This document shows positions 1 through 8,539 of a stretch of DNA of 14,410 nt, one piece after another (the first letter of the stretch is position 1; each line of letters begins with the position of its first letter). The position numbers were made by a program, and so were the translations under genes. This DNA comes from Candidatus Auribacterota bacterium (GTDB lineage: Bacteria; Auribacterota; UBA6266). The notes below the pieces were generated by a model. It ran no database searches. It saw only the letters and a program-made list of their open reading frames with translations, and was not told the DNA's origin. The stretch lies in assembly GCA_023136205.1 (NCBI GenBank), contig JAGLRQ010000003.1, positions 1 to 14,410 on the forward strand, given 5' to 3'.

Positions 1-3000
1 ATAACCATAACAGGAAGGTTTTTTTCTACAAGTTCAAAATTTTTCTTAAAAGCCGACGGAAAAAGAATGACTTCCATGCTCCCTTTAAGGTCTTCCAGTG
101 TAAGAACAGCCATTTTTTCTCTTGTTTTTCTTGTCGCCAGATTTTTTAAATTTGAAATAATTCCTCCTACCATAACAGTCCCGTTAGAAGAAGCCTTTTT
201 AATACTTTCGGTATCAGCGGTAGAAAATATCTTCAAAACATTTTTATACTGAACAATTGGATGACCTGAAATATAAAAGCCTAAAAGTTCCTTTTCAAAC
301 GTCAGAAGCTGGCTTTCATGAAATTCCGCGACATCAGGCAATGCTTCTGACTTAATAGTTGCGGTCTCCTCTCCAAAAAGAGATTGTTGCCCTCTTTGTC
401 TTTCTCTGTGTAATCCGGCGGCATCAATAAGCTTCGCATCCAACACCTTAAATAATTGGGCTCTTTTGTATCCAAGGCTGGAAAAGGCCCCGCATTTAAT
501 AAGGCTTTCCACAACCTTTCTATTAGAAGCTTTTGTATCAACACTATTAAGAAAATCTGTTAATGAAATAAACTTTCCCCTCTTTTCCCTGACTTTCACT
601 ATTGATTCAACTGCTGTCTCCCCGACATTTTTTATTGCCGCCAAACCAAACCTGATATTACCGCCTACAACAGTAAATCCTTTAAAACTCTCGTTAATAT
701 CGGGCGGCAGAATTTCTATACCCATGTTTGAACACTCATCAATATATTTAGCCATTTTATCCATATTGTTAAGTTCGCTTGTTAGAAGAGCGGCCATGTA
801 CTCCACAGGATAATTTGCTTTAAGATACGCGGTCTGATAGGCGATCACGGCATAAGCCTGGCTATGAGATTTATTAAAACCGTATCCGGCAAACTTTTCA
901 ATGGTATTAAAGATTTTTTCAGCAAGTTTCTTCTTTATTCCATTTTTTACCGCGCCATCAATAAACTTCGTCTCCTGCTTTCCCATTGCGGCTTTTTTCT
1001 TCTTTCCCATAATCCTTCTTAAGATATCCGCATCAGCAAGAGTATATCCCGCAATCACATTCACAGTCTGCATCACCTGTTCCTGGTAAAGCATAATGCC
1101 ATAGGTATCTCGCAAAATCGGCTCAAGGCTTGGATGGTCATACTTTATGGGAACCTTACCAAGCTTTTTCTGAACATAGTCATCAAGCATATTCATCGGG
1201 CCCGGCCTATAAAGAGCTACAAGAGCATTTACATCTTCCAAAGTTGAAATTCCTATTCTTCTCGCGAGATCCTGCATTCCCGCGCTTTCAAGTTGAAACA
1301 CACCTATAGTATCGGCATTGTTCAGCAGTTCAAATGTTTTAAAATTCTCGAGAGAAATTTCATCAATATTAATTTTCTCTCCTCGGGTTTTATCTATAAT
1401 TCTTATACAGTTTTGAATTACTGTAAGAGTCTTCAGCCCCAGAAAATCCATTTTCAAAAGGCCGATTCTGCTGACATCGTTCATATCAAACTGTGTAATA
1501 ACTTCACCCTCTTTTCCCCTGCAAAGCGGCAGGTATTCCTCCAAAGGTTTGTTGTCAGCGATAACTACTCCCGCGGCATGAGTGGAGGCATGTCTGCTTA
1601 ACCCCTCAAGTTTAAGTGCCATCTCAAAAAGCCTTTTTATTCTTTCATCTTTGTTTATCGCTTCTTTTAATCTCGGCTCGCTTTTTAAAGCTTTCTTCAA
1701 TGTAACACCCAAACCTTCCGGAACAAGCTTGGCAAGTCTATCAACCTCGGCATATGGCATATTCAGAACCCTTCCAACATCCCTTACCACTGCCTTAGCC
1801 TTCATGGTTCCAAAGGTTATAATCTGAGCAACACTGTCTTTGCCATATTTTGTGGAGACATATTCAATAAGCTTTCCCCTGTCCTCATCAGCGATATCGA
1901 TATCGATATCGGGAGGAGAAACACGAGAAGGGTTTAGAAATCTTTCAAAAAGAAGATTGAACTTTATGGGATCAACATTTGTTATTTCAAGAACATAGGA
2001 TACAAGGCTTCCTGCCGCGGAGCCCCTGCCGGGGCCTATCGCAATCGCATGTGTTTTTGCATAGTGTATAAAATCCCACACGATAAGAAAGTAACTTATA
2101 AAACCAAGTTTTTCTATAATTTGAAGTTCATGCTCTAACCTTTCCCTGACTTCAGAAGTTACTTTGCCATATCTTTTCACCAACCCTTTCTCGCAAAGTT
2201 CTCTTAAATAATCTTCCTGTTTTTTGCTTCCGGGCACCACGAATTTCGGATAATAGTATCTACCGCCAAGCTGAAGTTCCAGGTTGCATCTGTCTGCTAT
2301 TTCCAATGTAGTTTCCAAAGACTGCGGCAAATCTTCAAAAGCTATTTTCATTTCTGTTTCGCTTTTTAAATAAAATTCATCTGTGGACATTTTCATCCTT
2401 TTTGCGTCATCGACTGTGGCATCTGTCTGTATGCCAAGGAATATTTCGTGAGCGGCAGCATCCTCTTTGTCAATGTAATGAACATCGTTTGTCGCAACCA
2501 GCTTTAAACCAGAATCTTCAGAAAGTTCTTTCAAAACTTTATTAACTTTAATCTGTTCCGGAATCAGGTGATTCATAACTTCGAGATAAAAATTTTCTTT
2601 TCCAAAAATTCCTATGTACTCATCAATAATAGCCCTGGCTTTGTCTATGTTTCCATTAAGAATCTCCTGTGCAATTTCACCTTTGAGACATCCGCTAAGC
2701 GCTATAAGCCCGCTGCTAAACTCTCTCAGCGTTGCCTTGTCTATTCTCGGTTTATAATAGTATCCCTCGCGGTAAGCTCTGGTATTTAATTTTATGAGAT
2801 TGCTGTATCCTTCCTTATCCTTTATGAGTAAAGTAAGATGATACGCATTGGTTTTGCGTGAATTAGGTTTCTTTTCTTTCATGCTGCCGGGAGAAACGTA
2901 CATCTCGCATCCTATTATGGGTTTTATACCTGCATCCAAAGCCTTATCATAAAACTTTATAACACCATGCATATTACCGTGGTCCGTTATCGCGAGGGTA

Positions 3001-3113
3001 GACATTCCAAGTTCAACCGCTTTTTTAATAAGCCTGTCTAAACTACAAGCTCCATCAAGAAGGCTGTACTCGGTATGAACGTGCAGGTGAGCAAAATTTT
3101 TATTATTATTCAT
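1..3113 (-). CDS. dnaE: DNA polymerase III alpha subunit (DnaE), N-terminal ~1037 codons; 3' end lies beyond the window
   Basis: ATG at 3113-3111. Hand translation begins MNNNKNFAHLHVHTEYSLLDGA...LAITDHGNMHG, showing PHP-domain HxH and DHG motifs. VSPPDIDIDIA is encoded at 1922-1890, the polymerase catalytic-Asp PDIDID motif. The frame has a start but no stop in the window, which explains why the track (start-to-stop ORFs only) does not list it. Confidence 0.95.
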   Translation of the reverse strand, partial: MNNNKNFAHLHVHTEYSLLDGACSLDRLIKKAVELGMSTLAITDHGNMHGVIKFYDKALDAGIKPIIGCEMYVSPGSMKEKKPNSRKTNAYHLTLLIKDKEGYSNLIKLNTRAYREGYYYKPRIDKATLREFSSGLIALSGCLKGEIAQEILNGNIDKARAIIDEYIGIFGKENFYLEVMNHLIPEQIKVNKVLKELSEDSGLKLVATNDVHYIDKEDAAAHEIFLGIQTDATVDDAKRMKMSTDEFYLKSETEMKIAFEDLPQSLETTLEIADRCNLELQLGGRYYYPKFVVPGSKKQEDYLRELCEKGLVKRYGKVTSEVRERLEHELQIIEKLGFISYFLIVWDFIHYAKTHAIAIGPGRGSAAGSLVSYVLEITNVDPIKFNLLFERFLNPSRVSPPDIDIDIADEDRGKLIEYVSTKYGKDSVAQIITFGTMKAKAVVRDVGRVLNMPYAEVDRLAKLVPEGLGVTLKKALKSEPRLKEAINKDERIKRLFEMALKLEGLSRHASTHAAGVVIADNKPLEEYLPLCRGKEGEVITQFDMNDVSRIGLLKMDFLGLKTLTVIQNCIRIIDKTRGEKINIDEISLENFKTFELLNNADTIGVFQLESAGMQDLARRIGISTLEDVNALVALYRPGPMNMLDDYVQKKLGKVPIKYDHPSLEPILRDTYGIMLYQEQVMQTVNVIAGYTLADADILRRIMGKKKKAAMGKQETKFIDGAVKNGIKKKLAEKIFNTIEKFAGYGFNKSHSQAYAVIAYQTAYLKANYPVEYMAALLTSELNNMDKMAKYIDECSNMGIEILPPDINESFKGFTVVGGNIRFGLAAIKNVGETAVESIVKVREKRGKFISLTDFLNSVDTKASNRKVVESLIKCGAFSSLGYKRAQLFKVLDAKLIDAAGLHRERQRGQQSLFGEETATIKSEALPDVAEFHESQLLTFEKELLGFYISGHPIVQYKNVLKIFSTADTESIKKASSNGTVMVGGIISNLKNLATRKTREKMAVLTLEDLKGSMEVILFPSAFKKNFELVEKNLPVMV

Positions 3114-3125
3114 AAACAAAATATT

Positions 3126-3368
3126 TCACTCTCTTTTTTTTCCTTCACTTTTATTTATAGAACTACAGCGAGGGCAGCGTGAAAAGTCCTCTTCGGAATC
3201 ATAAATATATACATACGCACAAATCGGGCACCTGCAGGTTTTTTTTTGTTCAGGATTTACCCTCTTCACCTTGACCTTATACTCAAAAAAAATCCAGGCA
3301 AAGAGCACCACTCCCAGGGAAAGGCACAGATACACAACAAAAGCAGTGGAAATATCAACTTTTATCAT
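3126..3368 (-). CDS. small (80 aa) membrane-anchored zinc-ribbon protein, function unknown
   Basis: ATG at 3368-3366 overlaps the stop of the upstream TonB_C gene by 14 nt (AAATGATAAAAGTTGA). One N-terminal hydrophobic helix (ISTAFVVYLCLSLGVVLFAWIFFEY) is followed by a K/R-rich stretch and by CRCPIC-x15-CPRC, two Cys knuckles typical of a zinc ribbon or rubredoxin-like fold. The stop is 12 nt before the dnaE ATG. No family recognised by eye. Confidence 0.6.
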   Translation of the reverse strand: MIKVDISTAFVVYLCLSLGVVLFAWIFFEYKVKVKRVNPEQKKTCRCPICAYVYIYDSEEDFSRCPRCSSINKSEGKKRE

Positions 3369-4143
3369 TTTTTATTTCTTCCACATTAGAATCCGGAATT
3401 GCCGGATGCGCATTAATGGTCCCCCAGTCAAGAGAATCAGTGCCGGTATCTTCAGAAAATATCCATTCGGAAACCGCATCCGCCCACAATTGATCAATTT
3501 TTTTTCTGCCGCAAGATTTCTCAATTATTACATATCTCACTTTACCTAACGGTGTAACCCAGAATTTCAGCGTAAGCCTGTTCAAATCTGAATAGTCCTT
3601 AAAATCCTCCGGCAACTGTGGAAAATGCATTTTCACGGCATCTCTCACGGATACAGGGCCCGCAACAAGTGATTTTTTCCTTTCAAATATATCCAGTAAG
3701 CCCCCACCCCATTTTCCTTCAATCATAGATGGAGCGAAGACATCTTTCGATTCTAATTCTAACTTTATGTTAAACTCCGGTTTCGATAAGACTCCAGCTA
3801 AAGTTATCGGAGATTCCTGTCTGCGGCTGCGCAAACTTGCGGGCTCCTGATCCCATACAACCACCTGGTGATCAAATTTAATTTCAGAATCCAGCACTTT
3901 TCTTGAAAATCCAGCCCGGCCCGGCATAGAAAAAAGGCTATAGTCGCTTTCGCTTAAAATATCAGTAATCTCAGGTTTATCAAGCCTCAGAGGAACTGAA
4001 ACAAGAAAAACTTCCACGGGTAATCTTTTCGCGAGGAAAAAGGGGTCGCTTTTCACACCCACCAGCAAGAAACCTGCCAAGTGCCATACAACAGACAATA
4101 AAAATGCCTGAAAAAATATTTTGTCTTTCAAAACACCATTCAT
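3355..4143 (-). CDS. TonB/TolA-like energy-transducer candidate: N-terminal TM anchor plus C-terminal TonB_C-like domain
   Basis: ATG at 4143. N-terminal helix is FFQAFLLSVVWHLAGFLLVGV. The C-terminal segment FPQLPEDF...LTLKFWVTPLGKVRYVIIEKSCGRKKIDQLWADAVSEWIF fits the TonB C-terminal pattern (YP..A...G.V.v.F.V...G.V....v..SSG...LD.AA..AV..W.F). It lies 16 nt downstream of exbD, the canonical exbB-exbD-tonB order. The central region is not Pro/Glu/Lys-rich, unlike classical TonB. No obvious SD. Confidence 0.65.
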   Translation of the reverse strand: MNGVLKDKIFFQAFLLSVVWHLAGFLLVGVKSDPFFLAKRLPVEVFLVSVPLRLDKPEITDILSESDYSLFSMPGRAGFSRKVLDSEIKFDHQVVVWDQEPASLRSRRQESPITLAGVLSKPEFNIKLELESKDVFAPSMIEGKWGGGLLDIFERKKSLVAGPVSVRDAVKMHFPQLPEDFKDYSDLNRLTLKFWVTPLGKVRYVIIEKSCGRKKIDQLWADAVSEWIFSEDTGTDSLDWGTINAHPAIPDSNVEEIKNDKS

Positions 4144-4159
4144 CGGAAAGGGATAAAGG

Positions 4160-4570
4160 TTATTCTCTCTTCTTAGGTTTCGTAGCTATGGCTAATCTGT
4201 TTATACCGGCAGATTTTATTTCACCCATCACTTTTACAACAAGCCCATGATTAACCCTGTCGTCAGCTTTAATAATAACTATCTTATCGGGGGTTCTCTT
4301 TGCTATAGGCCTGAGCTTAATTCCAAGGGCTTCTTCAGTTATATTTTCATCATTTAGGAGAATCTTCCTTTCCGAAGTAATTGTTACAATAATATTATCC
4401 TCAGACTGCGCTTCGCTCACTTTCGATTCAGGAAGATTCACTTTTATCCCCGGCTGAAGTATAAATGAAGATGACAGCATAAAAAACAGCAACAGCAGGA
4501 AAATCACATCTATAAGAGGAGTAATATCTAATTTCCCTTTTTCAAGCGAGGTCTTTTTTCTAAACTTCAT
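4160..4570 (-). CDS. exbD: ExbD/TolR family biopolymer transport protein (136 aa)
   Basis: The track ORF runs to 4648, but I place the start at the ATG at 4570-4568 (MKFRKKTSLEKGKLDITPLIDVIFLLLLFFMLSS...). This gives the typical short cytoplasmic N-terminus, the D-x-TPLIDV-x-F-LL-FF TM signature of ExbD/TolR and a periplasmic domain. This ATG overlaps the exbB stop by 11 nt (GAATATGAAGTTTAG), suggesting translational coupling. Confidence 0.9.
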   Translation of the reverse strand: MKFRKKTSLEKGKLDITPLIDVIFLLLLFFMLSSSFILQPGIKVNLPESKVSEAQSEDNIIVTITSERKILLNDENITEEALGIKLRPIAKRTPDKIVIIKADDRVNHGLVVKVMGEIKSAGINRLAIATKPKKRE

Positions 4571-5192
4571 ATTCTTCTCCTCTAGCAGCAAGAATATTGA
4601 CAAGTTCCGTAGCGCTCTTTTCCATATCAAGAACCAGAGAATCAACACGGCTTACAAGATAGTTATAAGCCACATAAGCCGGTATAGCAACTGTTAACCC
4701 CGCGGCGGTTGTCACCAGAGCTTCCCATATACCTCCCGCAAGGTCAGCCGGATTTACAATGCCCGCCTTCGCGCTTATATCCTGAATTCGCATAAAAGCC
4801 TTGATCATGCCCGTTACCGTCCCAAGAAGCCCCAGAAGAGGTGTTACATGAGCAATGGTCGCGAGTACTACCAGGTTTTTTTCGAAACGCGGAACTTCAT
4901 GCAATCCCGCATCTTCTATTGATTCTTTTATTTCTTCTTTTTGATCATCATGTTTCAGGAGCCCTGCTTTGACTATATGTGCCACAGGGCCAGGTGTTTC
5001 ATCACAAATCGAGATAGCTTCCGTTATTTTTCCCTTCTTTATTATATTTCTAATGCCCGCCATGAATTTCTCGGTATCAATCTGGGCACGGTGGAAATGA
5101 AACAACCGTTCAATGAAAATAGTAAGAGCAAGGACTGAACAAAACCCAATAAGATACATTAACGGCCCGCCTTTTACTACAATTTCTAACAT
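4560..5192 (-). CDS. exbB: MotA/TolQ/ExbB family proton-channel protein (210 aa)
   Basis: ATG at 5192, preceded by a strong SD (AAAAGGAGGATTAT-ATG). It has three predicted TM helices. The family signature is present: PLLGLLGTVTGMIKAF...LAGGIWEALVTTAAGLTVAIPAYVAYNYL. Confidence 0.92.
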   Translation of the reverse strand: MLEIVVKGGPLMYLIGFCSVLALTIFIERLFHFHRAQIDTEKFMAGIRNIIKKGKITEAISICDETPGPVAHIVKAGLLKHDDQKEEIKESIEDAGLHEVPRFEKNLVVLATIAHVTPLLGLLGTVTGMIKAFMRIQDISAKAGIVNPADLAGGIWEALVTTAAGLTVAIPAYVAYNYLVSRVDSLVLDMEKSATELVNILAARGEEYEV

Positions 5193-5214
5193 ATAATCCT
5201 CCTTTTATTATATC

Positions 5215-5242
5215 GTATTGAGTATTGAGTATCGCGTATTGC
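5215..5242. repeat. four tandem heptamers GTATTGA GTATTGA GTATCGC GTATTGC (plus strand), in the TPR-exbB intergenic region
   Basis: Read directly from the sequence. Copies lie at 5215-5221, 5222-5228, 5229-5235 and 5236-5242. On the transcribed strand they read GCAATAC GCGATAC TCAATAC TCAATAC, ending about 12 nt before the exbB SD. Confidence 0.85.
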
Positions 5243-5270
5243 GTTAAGAATTCTATTTAATACGCAATAC
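5236..5270 (-). repeat. inverted repeat / RNA hairpin: 9-bp arms (GTATTGCGT / ACGCAATAC) with a 17-nt loop containing the palindrome AGAATTCT
   Basis: Arms at 5236-5244 and 5262-5270 are perfectly complementary. The right arm extends to ACGCAATACTC, which can alternatively pair with GAGTAT of a neighbouring heptamer. It sits 17 nt after the TPR stop codon, but no U-tract follows on the minus strand, so it is not a canonical intrinsic terminator. Confidence 0.7.
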
Positions 5271-5286
5271 TCACTACTGATTTTTC

Positions 5287-7755
5287 CTACCAGATAAAAC
5301 TTCCCTTCCTCCTCAATTCGCTTATCCTTTTTGCGGCATCTTCGCTTAACGGATTGTTTACATCAATCAGTTTCTGATAAATTTTTATAGCTTCTTTAAA
5401 TTTGCCCATCCCTTCATATAATTCAGCAGCTTTATAATCTGCCTTCGAAAACCAGTGTTTAACCTGAGAATAACCATATATTACCATAAGATAGCGATCC
5501 AGAGCTTTATCAATATCACCAAGTTTTTCAAAACATCTTCCTATTTTATAATATGCCTGGGCTTTTAATTCAGGGTTGTCGCTGCTAAGAATTTCTTCGT
5601 ACACCTCGACTGCCTCCTGATATTTTTCCATAGTGAAAAGTGAATCTGCAATTCTTCCTTTTGTTTCGAAAACAAGGTAGTTATTCTTTTGCTCCGAAAG
5701 TGCGGTAAAAGTTTCAAGCGCTTCACCAAATCTGGCTTGAGCCGCAAAGCAATCACCTAAAAGAAAGGCGCCATCAAATCTAAAATCGCCGTCGGGGTAC
5801 CTGGCTAAAAGTTCCTTCAAAATTGCTTCGGCATCATTAATGTCCTCATTTCTAAAAGCACTTTTCGCCGCCCAAAACATTGCCTCATCGGCCAGCTCGG
5901 AAGAAGGGAAGACTTCATATAATTTCGTGTATATTCCCCTCGCGGACTTAAATTCTTCATTATTATACCTCTTCTCACCAAGCCAAAACATGACTTCCGC
6001 TGTAATAGGTGAATGAGGGTACTTTACGACATATTCTTCAAAAGATTTACTTGCTTCTTCCATTTTCCCCATCTGGCTGTAACACCAGGCACGTTCATAT
6101 TCCGCGCGCGGAACCAGAGGACTACCAGGAAACTGTTCTATCATTTCCGAATAATATTTAAGAGACCGCTGATAATCTCCCATCGCATAATATGTGGCGC
6201 CTATCCGAAAGGTCGCCATATCCTTAAGGTCAGATCCGGCAAAAGAGTTTAAAAGCTTAAAATATGCTCCAATAGCTTTTTCGAAATTTCCCGCATTGAA
6301 ATTAGCCATACCAATTCTATATTGCGCATTATCTGAAAACGGGCTTTCAGGATATTGAGTTATAAGAGTCTCAAAAGCTCCCATTGCTTTCGAAAAACCT
6401 TCCAGTTTATAATAACACCACCCTATTTGAAAAAGAGCCTGGTCGGCTTTCCCGCTCCGCGGATATTCACTAAGAATCATTTTATAACTTTTTACAGCCC
6501 CTTCGTAATCACCCAGAAAATAATAGGCATCGCCTATTTTTAACTGTGTTCCCGCTTTAAAACCAGGATCGTTACTGCTTTCTCTCGCCCTTTTGAAATT
6601 ATCAACTGCCTTAATATATTTACTCTGCCTGAAATATGCCCATCCAAGCCCATTATAAAATTTGGGTAATTTTACACTGCTATGAAATCTATTCAACAGC
6701 TCCTTGAAAAACGCTTCGCCTTTTTCATATTCTCCGAGCTCCAGATAGGATTCCGCAAGCCAATACGTCGCATCCTCAATACTAAAATCCTCCGGATAAT
6801 CTTTAATAAATGTTTCCAGTTTCTCAACAGCTGTTTTATAATCCGCCAGAATAAAACTGCCTTCCCCTATGCGCAAATAAGCAGCCTTCGCGTAAGAGCT
6901 GGATGGATAGTCTGTTATAAGAAGCTGGAACTTTTCTACCGCCTTATTATACTCCTTAAGTTCCCAGTAAGACCACCCAATAAGATACAGACAGGTATGA
7001 GCCCATTCTTCATTTTTCCCTTTCTCAAGAGCTTTCTCCAAATTATCAATTGCCTTGGAATATTTATTTTCTGCAAGGTTAACTTTCCCAAGCCACAACA
7101 TGGACTCCATGGCTTCATAAGAATCCGGTGATTTTTCAACAACCTTCCTAAAATTATCCTCCGCAATATCGTAATGCTTAAGACCATACTCCATAGATCC
7201 AATACTGAGACAGGTTTTCGCGAAAAGTTTACTCTCAGGAAATTTTTTCACAAGTTCATTAAAAATCTCTATTCCCTTCTCATCCTCATTTTTATGGCGG
7301 TAACACCATCCCAGAGAATAATACGCGTACTCCATATAAAAACCTTTATCGTACTCTACAATAAGTTTCCGATACGCTGAAATAGCTTCATCGTATCTTT
7401 TCTTTTTAAGATACGATTCCCCAATCCAGTACAGCATTGAATCCCTGAAGGATCTATCACGATACTTGATATATCTGTTTAAAAGATTAATCGCCTGATC
7501 GTAATTTTCACTATAATAGTGGCATTCTCCAAGAAGCGCTATCGCTTCCCTGCGATTTTCCGCGGTGGGATAGGTAGAAATATATCTTTGTAATTGGATA
7601 GCGGCAGTATCATACAATTCATCGGCATATGCTCCCTTTGCCACATCCAAAAGCTCTTTAGCCTCTTTGCCTTCATACGCAGAACAAAGCGTCGTAAAGA
7701 AAAGAAGAATGATTATACATACATAAGTTCTTAAACTACAACGGGATAAAAGCAC
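5287..7755 (-). CDS. large secreted tetratricopeptide-repeat protein (~820 aa), tandem CpoB(YbgF)/BamD-type TPR units
   Basis: The ORF is open from 7821 (TTG), with other in-frame starts at ATG 7812 and GTG 7755. I favour GTG 7755. It lies 4 nt after the ymdB stop, has GAAAGG upstream, and yields a clean signal peptide (M)LLSRCSLRTYVCIIILLFFTTLCSA|YEG. The body has more than 12 repeats of the ~37-aa pattern A...F..L...YP.S....A.y.iG.cyy..g.y..A (for example ITDYPSSSYAKAAYLRIG, LSEYPRSGKADQALFQIGWCY, ITQYPESPFSDNAQYRIGMAN, IEQFPGSPLVPRAEYERAWCY, VVKYPHSPITAEVMFWLGE). The start coordinate is uncertain (7755, 7812 or 7821). Confidence 0.9.
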   Translation of the reverse strand: MLLSRCSLRTYVCIIILLFFTTLCSAYEGKEAKELLDVAKGAYADELYDTAAIQLQRYISTYPTAENRREAIALLGECHYYSENYDQAINLLNRYIKYRDRSFRDSMLYWIGESYLKKKRYDEAISAYRKLIVEYDKGFYMEYAYYSLGWCYRHKNEDEKGIEIFNELVKKFPESKLFAKTCLSIGSMEYGLKHYDIAEDNFRKVVEKSPDSYEAMESMLWLGKVNLAENKYSKAIDNLEKALEKGKNEEWAHTCLYLIGWSYWELKEYNKAVEKFQLLITDYPSSSYAKAAYLRIGEGSFILADYKTAVEKLETFIKDYPEDFSIEDATYWLAESYLELGEYEKGEAFFKELLNRFHSSVKLPKFYNGLGWAYFRQSKYIKAVDNFKRARESSNDPGFKAGTQLKIGDAYYFLGDYEGAVKSYKMILSEYPRSGKADQALFQIGWCYYKLEGFSKAMGAFETLITQYPESPFSDNAQYRIGMANFNAGNFEKAIGAYFKLLNSFAGSDLKDMATFRIGATYYAMGDYQRSLKYYSEMIEQFPGSPLVPRAEYERAWCYSQMGKMEEASKSFEEYVVKYPHSPITAEVMFWLGEKRYNNEEFKSARGIYTKLYEVFPSSELADEAMFWAAKSAFRNEDINDAEAILKELLARYPDGDFRFDGAFLLGDCFAAQARFGEALETFTALSEQKNNYLVFETKGRIADSLFTMEKYQEAVEVYEEILSSDNPELKAQAYYKIGRCFEKLGDIDKALDRYLMVIYGYSQVKHWFSKADYKAAELYEGMGKFKEAIKIYQKLIDVNNPLSEDAAKRISELRRKGSFIW

Positions 7756-7759
7756 AACA

Positions 7760-8539
7760 TCACACCTTTCTTTGAATCCTTTTAACAGATAAAGTTTTCC
7801 CCGTTTTTTCATCAATTTCAAAAAGCGCCCCGCAAACTTTTAAATCATTTTCCGCTACGTCAAATCTGGCGGGTATTTGTGTAATAAATCTTTTTAAAAC
7901 CGGTTCCACTTCTCTCCCGAGAACAGATTTATAGGGCCCGGTCATACCAATATCCGTTATAAAACCAGTGCCATTCGGAAGTATTGTTTCGTCGGCTGTC
8001 TGTATATGTGTATGCGTTCCAAAAATGCATGAAACTTTTCCGTCAAGATACCAACCAAGAGCTATTTTCTCCGATGTAGCCTCCGCATGCATATCTATTA
8101 TTATTATTGGTGTTTGCTGTGATAATTTGCTTACTAACTCGCCCGATGTTTTAAAAGGACATTCCACCGCATTCATAAAAACCCTGCCAACCAGGTTTAT
8201 AACAGCTATTTTTAACCCGTTTTTAAGTTCAAAAATACTATATCCTTTACCCGGCGCGGAATCAGGATAATTCGCAGGCCTTAACAGCCTCGGCTCTTCA
8301 TCTATAATCTTAAAAACCGCCTGGTTTTTCCAGACATGGTCTCCACTTGTAATAACATCTGCTCCCGATTCAAGAAGAAAAGAAACCACTTTAGGTGTAA
8401 ACCCGCTTCCTGCCGCAGAATTTTCTCCATTGACAATACAAAAATCAACGGAATACTCCTCTTTTAACACGGGAAACAGCTTGGCAAAGGCCTGTCTCCC
8501 CGGCCTTCCTACTATGTCACCGATTACCAGTACATTCAA
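7760..8539 (-). CDS. ymdB: YmdB-family metallophosphoesterase (2',3'-cyclic-nucleotide phosphodiesterase-like), 259 aa
   Basis: TTG start at 8539, preceded by AAGGGAG. The N-terminus MNVLVIGDIVGRPGR...VNGENSAAGSGFT...GDHVW...DMHAEATSEK...GTHTHIQTAD matches the calcineurin-like YmdB (TIGR00282-type) motif series. It lies directly downstream of rny, as in Bacillus subtilis rny-ymdB. Confidence 0.9.
   Translation of the reverse strand: MNVLVIGDIVGRPGRQAFAKLFPVLKEEYSVDFCIVNGENSAAGSGFTPKVVSFLLESGADVITSGDHVWKNQAVFKIIDEEPRLLRPANYPDSAPGKGYSIFELKNGLKIAVINLVGRVFMNAVECPFKTSGELVSKLSQQTPIIIIDMHAEATSEKIALGWYLDGKVSCIFGTHTHIQTADETILPNGTGFITDIGMTGPYKSVLGREVEPVLKRFITQIPARFDVAENDLKVCGALFEIDEKTGKTLSVKRIQRKV

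Follow-up and report, generated by a model that had tools for sequence, protein, structure and literature searches.

A small membrane protein with a predicted cytoplasmic zinc ribbon, probable partner of a TonB-like protein in ExbB/ExbD-type operons of Auribacterota and three further phyla

Ton and Tol motors, which rank with the most thoroughly studied machines of the cell envelope, have been described as assemblies of three inner-membrane components, ExbB–ExbD–TonB and TolQ–TolR–TolA in E. coli, and the membrane anchors of TonB and TolA share an SxxxH signature. To our knowledge, no fourth, small zinc-ribbon subunit exists in the E. coli systems, and literature searches for a subunit of this kind in Ton/Tol systems found no description of one. 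The gene considered here, called ZR after the zinc ribbon predicted in its product, lies directly behind three genes homologous to those of E. coli, encoding a MotA_ExbB protein, an ExbD protein and a protein that combines an SxxxH anchor with a TonB fold.

A cytoplasmic zinc ribbon is known from one motor of this kind. The TolQR-type Agl motor of Myxococcus includes the TonB-like GltJ, whose N-terminus bears such a ribbon; this ribbon works as a binding switch for MglB and for the GltJ linker, and it modulates how stable the machine is (PMC11135422). The GltJ/GltG proteins of the Agl-Glt system of Myxococcus xanthus (PMC11135422, PMC11761067) share with ZR, as it is predicted, the combination of a Cys4 ribbon on the cytoplasmic side of the inner membrane, a TonB-like protein and a proton motor. 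The ribbon of GltJ is, however, part of the TonB-like protein itself and precedes its transmembrane (TM) helix, whereas that of ZR is C-terminal, belongs to a separate protein of 80 aa and would have the opposite orientation; moreover, ZR lacks a GYF domain as well as any MJ0042-type sequence match, and the genome that carries it yielded no Roadblock gene of the MglA/MglB type. ZitP of Caulobacter crescentus (PDB 2nb9) is also membrane-anchored and bears a small cytoplasmic zinc finger, which docks PopZ, but this finger is N-terminal, ZitP stands outside any ExbBD operon and its structural match to ZR (rank 21, E 1.6) is not significant. A local likeness exists with PqiA, from the PqiABC lipid transporter, in which a TM helix is followed by a cytoplasmic CxxC...CxxC pattern; several ZR members bear the automatic JGI name 'paraquat-inducible protein A', and in one genus ZR sits in an MlaFE lipid-transporter operon. 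PqiA has about 400 aa and eight TM helices. Membership in its family was rejected for ZR, which has 80 aa and a single TM helix and scores 13.2 bits against a TIGR00155 cut-off of 260; four of ten members gave matches, likewise far below threshold, at E≥0.007.

The window, that is, the whole 14,410-nt stretch of Auribacterota DNA under analysis, carries the genes in question on its reverse strand. A large protein of 844 aa (positions 5287–7821) that matches TPR families heads the module in Auribacterota and Omnitrophota; at 24–31% identity, it aligns over nearly its full length with the product of a gene of about 816 aa preceding ExbB in Omnitrophota. Then come ExbB/TolQ (210 aa; 4560–5192; PF01618, E 6e-34; TolQ TIGR02796, E 2e-32) and ExbD/TolR (136 aa from an ATG at 4570; 4160–4570; PF02472, E 2e-31; TolR TIGR02801, E 1e-23), the latter keeping the TM Asp (TPLIDV). 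Both are slightly nearer to the NCBIfam TolQ/TolR models than to the ExbB/ExbD ones. They are followed by a gene of 262 aa (3355–4143), by ZR (3126–3368) and by dnaE (3–3113), which encodes the alpha subunit of polymerase III with its PHP and pol III alpha domains and is a neighbour outside the module.

The product of the 262-aa gene has a TM anchor that contains S17-x3-H21 at its N-terminus and a domain of TonB_C fold at its C-terminus, with a disordered linker in between. It has no Pfam match of its own and gives just a sub-threshold hit to TIGR01352 (E 7e-4). Among 51 orthologues, H21 is invariant and S17 is present in at least 90%, and 30 of the 51 match Pfam TonB_C (PF03544), with a best E of 5e-10. 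In its AlphaFold model, the TM helix and the beta-beta-alpha-beta domain at the C-terminus (pLDDT 80–96) are confident, and the linker (residues 45–164) is disordered, not helical and not rich in Pro; the top 15 Foldseek matches of the C-terminal domain are all TonB C-terminal domains (best E 5e-4, probability 1.0). The 'TonB-like' label given to this gene by the first-pass annotation is therefore right, as the anchor signature, the TonB_C matches of the orthologues and the Foldseek matches agree, and the gene is a divergent member of the TonB family. The nature of the linker sets the system apart from the canonical Ton system, as does the lack of any detected TonB-dependent receptor (PF00593, PF07715) in the window's genome, which is 92.65% complete.

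The ATG of ZR (3368–3366) lies within the final codons of the TonB-like gene, whose TGA stop is at 3357–3355, so that the 14-nt overlap (3355–3368) noticed in the first-pass annotation is confirmed. The stoichiometric co-expression that it had read from this overlap holds as far as coupled translation is concerned, although a 1:1 stoichiometry is not necessarily implied. Of 80 loci, 22 have a Shine-Dalgarno core 5′ of ZR, the background being 16%, too weak a signal to argue either way on independent initiation. ZR itself ends in a TGA codon, and the ATG of dnaE, at 3113, follows 12 nt further downstream. A promoter and terminator scan of positions 2800–8000 yielded sites no more numerous than in shuffled sequence, with no terminator-like site on the reverse strand between the start of ExbB and dnaE. 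From this arrangement, the TonB-like gene and ZR would form a translationally coupled cassette that ends a TolQ/ExbB–TolR/ExbD operon.

Translation of the reverse-strand ORF 3368..3126 gives the 80-aa sequence MIKVDISTAFVVYLCLSLGVVLFAWIFFEYKVKVKRVNPEQKKTCRCPICAYVYIYDSEEDFSRCPRCSSINKSEGKKRE. It begins with MIKVD and continues with a hydrophobic helix, the segment EYKVKVKRVNPEQKK, the cluster C45-R-C47-P-I-C50, 14 residues, the cluster C65-P-R-C68 and a short basic tail. The predicted TM helix spans residues ~6–28 (3285–3353), with the near-invariant W25 at its end, and rests on the conservation of W25 and Y13 and on the helix of the AlphaFold model. As previously outlined, this sole hydrophobic helix is followed by a K/R-rich stretch, EYKVKVKR...KK. 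The predicted zinc ribbon occupies residues ~44–72 (3153–3239) and contains C47-x2-C50 and C65-P66-x-C68-x-S70. Its motif had been written as CRCPIC-x15-CPRC; both Cys clusters stand, but the spacer from C50 to C65 has 14 residues, and C45 is not conserved, position 45 being Cys in just 12% of 129 distinct homologues. Since the other four of the five Cys and P66 are invariant in that set, the motif of the family is CxxC-x14-CPxC.

The first-pass annotation had taken conservation in relatives and purifying selection as marks of a genuine gene, and ZR bears both. A profile search detected homologues at E≤1e-12 in 44 of 79 species genomes of Auribacterota, and a search of 41 related genomes gave full-length matches in most families of the phylum, counts in which related genomes are not independent samples and absences rest on incomplete metagenome-assembled genomes (MAGs); three further phyla also carry the gene. 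Sixteen diverse orthologues align without gaps over 70 columns, with M1, C47, I49, C50, C65, P66 and C68 invariant. In the 129 distinct sequences, drawn from several phyla, the alignment is still almost gapless and M1, C47, C50, C65, P66 and C68 remain invariant, while W25 is kept in 99%, S70 in 94%, I2 in 92%, I49 in 90%, R67 in 87% and Y13 in 84%, and position 54 is always aromatic. Pairwise dN/dS is 0.04–0.08 within the window's own family and has a median of 0.12 over 130 Omnitrophota pairs. The ZR gene is under purifying selection, and these values exclude a chance ORF.

The ZR family amounts to 361 clusters at 50% identity in one search (E≤1e-10) and to 841 clusters at 90% identity in another (E≤1e-4). 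It had been suggested that ZR might be a mini-protein skipped by automated annotation. This is not the case, as NCBI records of MAGs list it as 'hypothetical protein', although none of the sources gives it a meaningful name; the family now provides annotators with a name and a context for hundreds of such 'hypothetical' mini-proteins. Longer database matches with N-terminal extensions were discarded as true forms of ZR because they look like miscalled starts, and matches of 776–1172 aa were set aside as unrelated proteins with repeated zinc-finger motifs. ZR from the verrucomicrobial genus Chthoniobacter, as labelled, has 79 aa. A subfamily labelled Hydrogenedentota reaches 118–125 aa through an Arg-rich C-terminal tail, which could bind nucleic acid or acidic lipids. 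Sequences with such a tail (P0116, P0133, P0138, P0154, L150 and L152; tail example RRKRRGARRGPRKRGGRR) include one P entry that bears the Hydrogenedentota label.

The AlphaFold model of ZR (pLDDT 75) consists of a helix at residues 6–36 and four short strands, with a pLDDT of ~90 at residues 11–30 and of ~75 in the strands of the ribbon. C47-x2-C50 and C65-x2-C68 form two CxxC knuckles, conserved in 100% of the 129 sequences. Top Foldseek matches of the model are zinc ribbons, the best at E 0.18, and its structural or sequence neighbours (HOIL-1 RING2, L37ae, HVO_2753, ZitP and TMEM55B) are all non-significant; a sequence search of the PDB returned no significant homologue among solved structures. 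When ZR and 48 members were scanned, no Pfam or NCBIfam model fitted, and the matches, all sub-threshold, were spread over dozens of generic models for zinc ribbons, HypA, Zn_ribbon_RPB9 and rubrerythrin among them. A ribbon of the MJ0042/ZitP/GltJ type was considered and rejected, both by position, as those ribbons are N-terminal and precede the TM helix while that of ZR follows it, and by sequence, as zinc_ribbon_4/5 (PF13717, PF13719) does not appear among the matches of ZR at E≤1, nor among the 25 most frequent of the 61 families matched (E≤0.05) by 38 ZR members. A ZAS anti-sigma factor was rejected as well: the HxxxCxxC motif of that family would require a His at position 43, which is Y, F or T in ZR, and no sigma-factor gene lies in the window or in the related loci.

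The orientation of ZR can be read from its charges. Net charge is -0.2 over residues 1–5, as against +1.6 over the 16 residues that follow the helix, about four of which are Lys/Arg, and by the positive-inside rule the basic flank of a TM helix is cytoplasmic. The cytoplasm is also a chemically fitting place for a Cys4 zinc site. On these sequence grounds, the predicted zinc ribbon is most likely cytoplasmic, in an N-out/C-in topology. The earlier placement of the K/R-rich segment and the Cys motif in the cytoplasm is thus upheld by the charge bias, and a natural fusion described below fits it. No single conserved face could be assigned to the TM helix, as 34% of shuffles reach the observed helical moment.

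The gene order around ZR is conserved well beyond the window. In Auribacterota, 17 of 20 loci have ExbB and/or ExbD directly upstream. A pattern scan with one genome per GTDB species provided 160 further ZR loci, 80 of which were kept (L053–L132), labelled either Omnitrophota or, automatically, 'Planctomycetia'. ExbB and/or ExbD lie upstream of ZR, across a gap of ~0.65–1.05 kb, in all 76 Omnitrophota loci with enough upstream DNA, and each of these 76 gaps is occupied by a TonB-like ORF. The junction itself is contained in 78 Omnitrophota loci; in 72 of them ZR starts -7 to +14 nt from the TonB-like stop, the commonest arrangement being a 4-nt ATGA overlap, and a large TPR gene is found 5′ of ExbB in nearly all Omnitrophota loci. 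Five contigs assigned to Verrucomicrobiota, to Hydrogenedentota or to no phylum present the order ExbB–ExbD–[250–290 aa]–ZR, again with a 4-nt overlap; the genes in the middle position fit the profile of the TonB-like family and their products retain the anchor His, and the Verrucomicrobiota and Hydrogenedentota loci examined have no TPR gene. Altogether, in three phyla all loci that were read have ZR behind the TonB-like gene, and in the fourth most of them do. The architecture of ZR, a TM helix followed by the Cys motif, and its position behind a TonB-type gene are retained across four phyla, as the first-pass annotation had anticipated for relatives.

What lies downstream of ZR varies with lineage, and includes IMPDH, GuaA and winged-helix (wHTH) genes or genes on the opposite strand. 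In Omnitrophota, 59 of 80 loci carry a winged-helix gene of the DUF2582 family behind ZR, often succeeded by genes for a W/K-rich protein of ~92 aa and for a member of the histone-deacetylase family; this stretch lies ~250–900 nt 3′ of ZR. None of these three genes adjoins ZR in the window.

Loci that lack ZR tell which of its neighbours is its partner. Auribacterota without ZR keep orthologous ExbB (56–72% identity) and ExbD, yet the TonB-like gene is absent from all 13 informative ZR-less loci, which come from five families; there, ExbD is directly followed by dnaE or by an IMPDH-like gene that is elsewhere found after ZR. As they are missing together, the TonB-like gene and ZR act as a cassette of two genes, and their joint presence and absence points to the TonB-like protein, rather than ExbB, as the partner of ZR. 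Individual ZR-less loci in which ExbB–ExbD stand without a TonB-like gene alongside are L133, L135–L138, L142, L146 and L139–L141. In two more, from family f11 (L144 in genome G023, L145 in G063), two LptF/LptG permease genes are inserted between ExbB and ExbD and dnaE follows; the assignment rests on PF03739 in L144 (E 1e-65 and 1e-79) and on resemblance only in L145. This insertion hints at a link of the motor to LPS or outer-membrane transport.

The pairing takes another form in genus g5 of family f4, where the nine ZR loci (L016, L019, L041, L043, L044, L046, L047, L154 and L155) have a STAS-MlaE fusion and MlaF, instead of ExbBD, ahead of ZR. The order there is LysM lipoprotein, STAS-MlaE fusion, MlaF, a conserved 60-aa protein and ZR, the LysM and STAS parts being confirmed in L155 only. 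In the 60-aa protein, a basic N-terminus precedes a single TM helix and a short tail rich in Pro and Glu; the gene for this protein overlaps ZR by 4 nt in L016, the locus checked. The pairing of ZR with an upstream membrane-protein gene has survived relocation in this genus, and since the MlaFE operon lacks ExbBD, an association of ZR with the ExbBD motor itself may not be obligatory. A second variant occurs in genome G022 (L153:5400–5720), in which a 106-aa ORF directly after ExbB joins a TonB-like anchor helix (LLSISFHILG) in frame to a complete ZR; a deletion has taken out ExbD together with the periplasmic portion of the TonB-like protein. Such a fusion fits solely an N-out/C-in ZR and sets the anchor helix and the ZR helix side by side; as it may be a decaying remnant, it is counted here as weak support.

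That ZR is a real gene and a dedicated partner of the TonB-like gene is very likely, and its place directly behind that gene in at least four phyla makes it probably a fourth motor subunit. The reading favoured here as a whole, with a probability of about 0.55, is that ZR is a membrane subunit paired with the TonB-like anchor, its ribbon serving as a cytoplasmic docking or regulatory knob. Some five residues of ZR would be periplasmic, followed by the single TM helix and by a predicted Cys4 ribbon of ~30 residues at the cytoplasmic face. The helix may pack antiparallel against the anchor helix of the TonB-like protein, at the rim of the ExbB/ExbD stator, and the ribbon could then touch either the cytoplasmic portion of ExbB or some soluble partner, different from lineage to lineage; in the neighbourhoods examined, no cytoplasmic partner common to all ZR lineages was identified. 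A docking or regulatory function of the predicted ribbon, taken on its own, is advanced tentatively, its chances falling somewhat short of even. More doubtful is a wider proposal, in which the PVC group and Hydrogenedentota would possess a class of four-component TolQR/ExbBD-type motors whose arm is controlled or coupled via ZR and whose job is the maintenance of outer-membrane lipid, LPS or the envelope, instead of receptor-dependent uptake; a task of this kind is hinted at by the missing TonB-dependent receptor, the LptF/LptG insertion in one family and the MlaFE context in another.

Other readings of the same data have to be weighed. ZR could be only an assembly or stability factor, a membrane chaperone for the TonB-like anchor helix in which the ribbon is a structural cap with no partner. 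The joint presence and absence of the two genes, their coupled junction and the helix-to-helix fusion fit this idea as well as they fit a motor subunit, and the failure to find a universal cytoplasmic partner speaks for it; it is nonetheless unlikely, because conservation on the surface of the ribbon equals that of the helix (87–100% for aromatic 54, I49, R67 and S70), which is beyond the needs of a cap and suggests that the ribbon is more than a passive one. Equally improbable is that ZR acts as a signalling tether, its ribbon, together with the basic tail of some lineages, binding a cytoplasmic regulator or nucleic acid, so that the state of the motor would bear on gene expression or on a GTPase switch. 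The frequent DUF2582 winged-helix gene behind ZR in Omnitrophota, often accompanied by the small W/K-rich protein and the deacetylase, would suit a tether, as would the Arg-rich tail of Hydrogenedentota members and the recruitment of MglB by the zinc ribbon of GltJ (PMC11135422). Yet neither DUF2582 nor Roadblock (MglA/MglB-type) genes were detected in the window's genome at its 92.65% completeness, three Verrucomicrobiota-type loci were read without a neighbour of either kind, and hardly any of ZR lies in the periplasm, where it could serve as a sensor.

The four invariant Cys might alternatively form a redox or metal sensor that switches the motor with zinc availability or oxidative stress. 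Very little probability is given to this reading, as no metal or redox genes occur in the window or in the contexts of related loci and Cys4 ribbons are mostly structural. As for dnaE, the 12 nt that separate it from ZR in the window had led to the proposal of a link between the two genes. The comparison refutes it: dnaE follows ZR solely in the window's family (f1), other genes take its place elsewhere, and it follows ExbD in relatives without ZR, so that the adjacency reflects an old regional synteny. A function of ZR in replication, or a chance ORF, which the dN/dS of 0.04–0.12 contradicts, can hence be given a negligible probability. The motor subunit with a cytoplasmic knob remains the preferred reading.

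If correct, this reading has consequences for how these motors are viewed. The first-pass annotation held that a cytoplasmic zinc knuckle on a Ton/Tol complex was undescribed; this stands for the subunit, of which no description was found, but the principle of the ribbon has a precedent in GltJ (PMC11135422), and by analogy ZR would be a separate-protein counterpart of that ribbon with reversed topology. New are the spread of ZR over four phyla, its joint presence and absence with the TonB-like gene, the Mla-linked variant, the fusion of anchor and ZR, and the measurements of selection. A fourth subunit would mean a layer of cytoplasmic control or coupling that model organisms lack, and the gliding motor of Myxococcus seems to have acquired such a layer in a different form. 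The family is large and its proteins are small, and most carriers (Omnitrophota, Auribacterota, Hydrogenedentota) are uncultured. Chthoniobacter is believed to have a cultured member, and the members labelled with this genus would make ZR testable at the bench.

The window's genome contains three ExbB-type systems, and ZR accompanies only one of them. Two other contigs, C164 (about 4350–6520) and C135 (about 2230–4090), hold further ExbB/ExbD sets, each with a TonB_C-type gene and without ZR. By eye, C164 also begins with an OmpA/Pal-like fragment. On C135, a 216-aa protein rich in CxxC pairs (MPCVNHPNKAAAWKCRQCGTEYCDNCVKK...) is encoded at 805–1455, ~770 nt upstream of ExbB, and an ORF on the opposite strand lies between the two.
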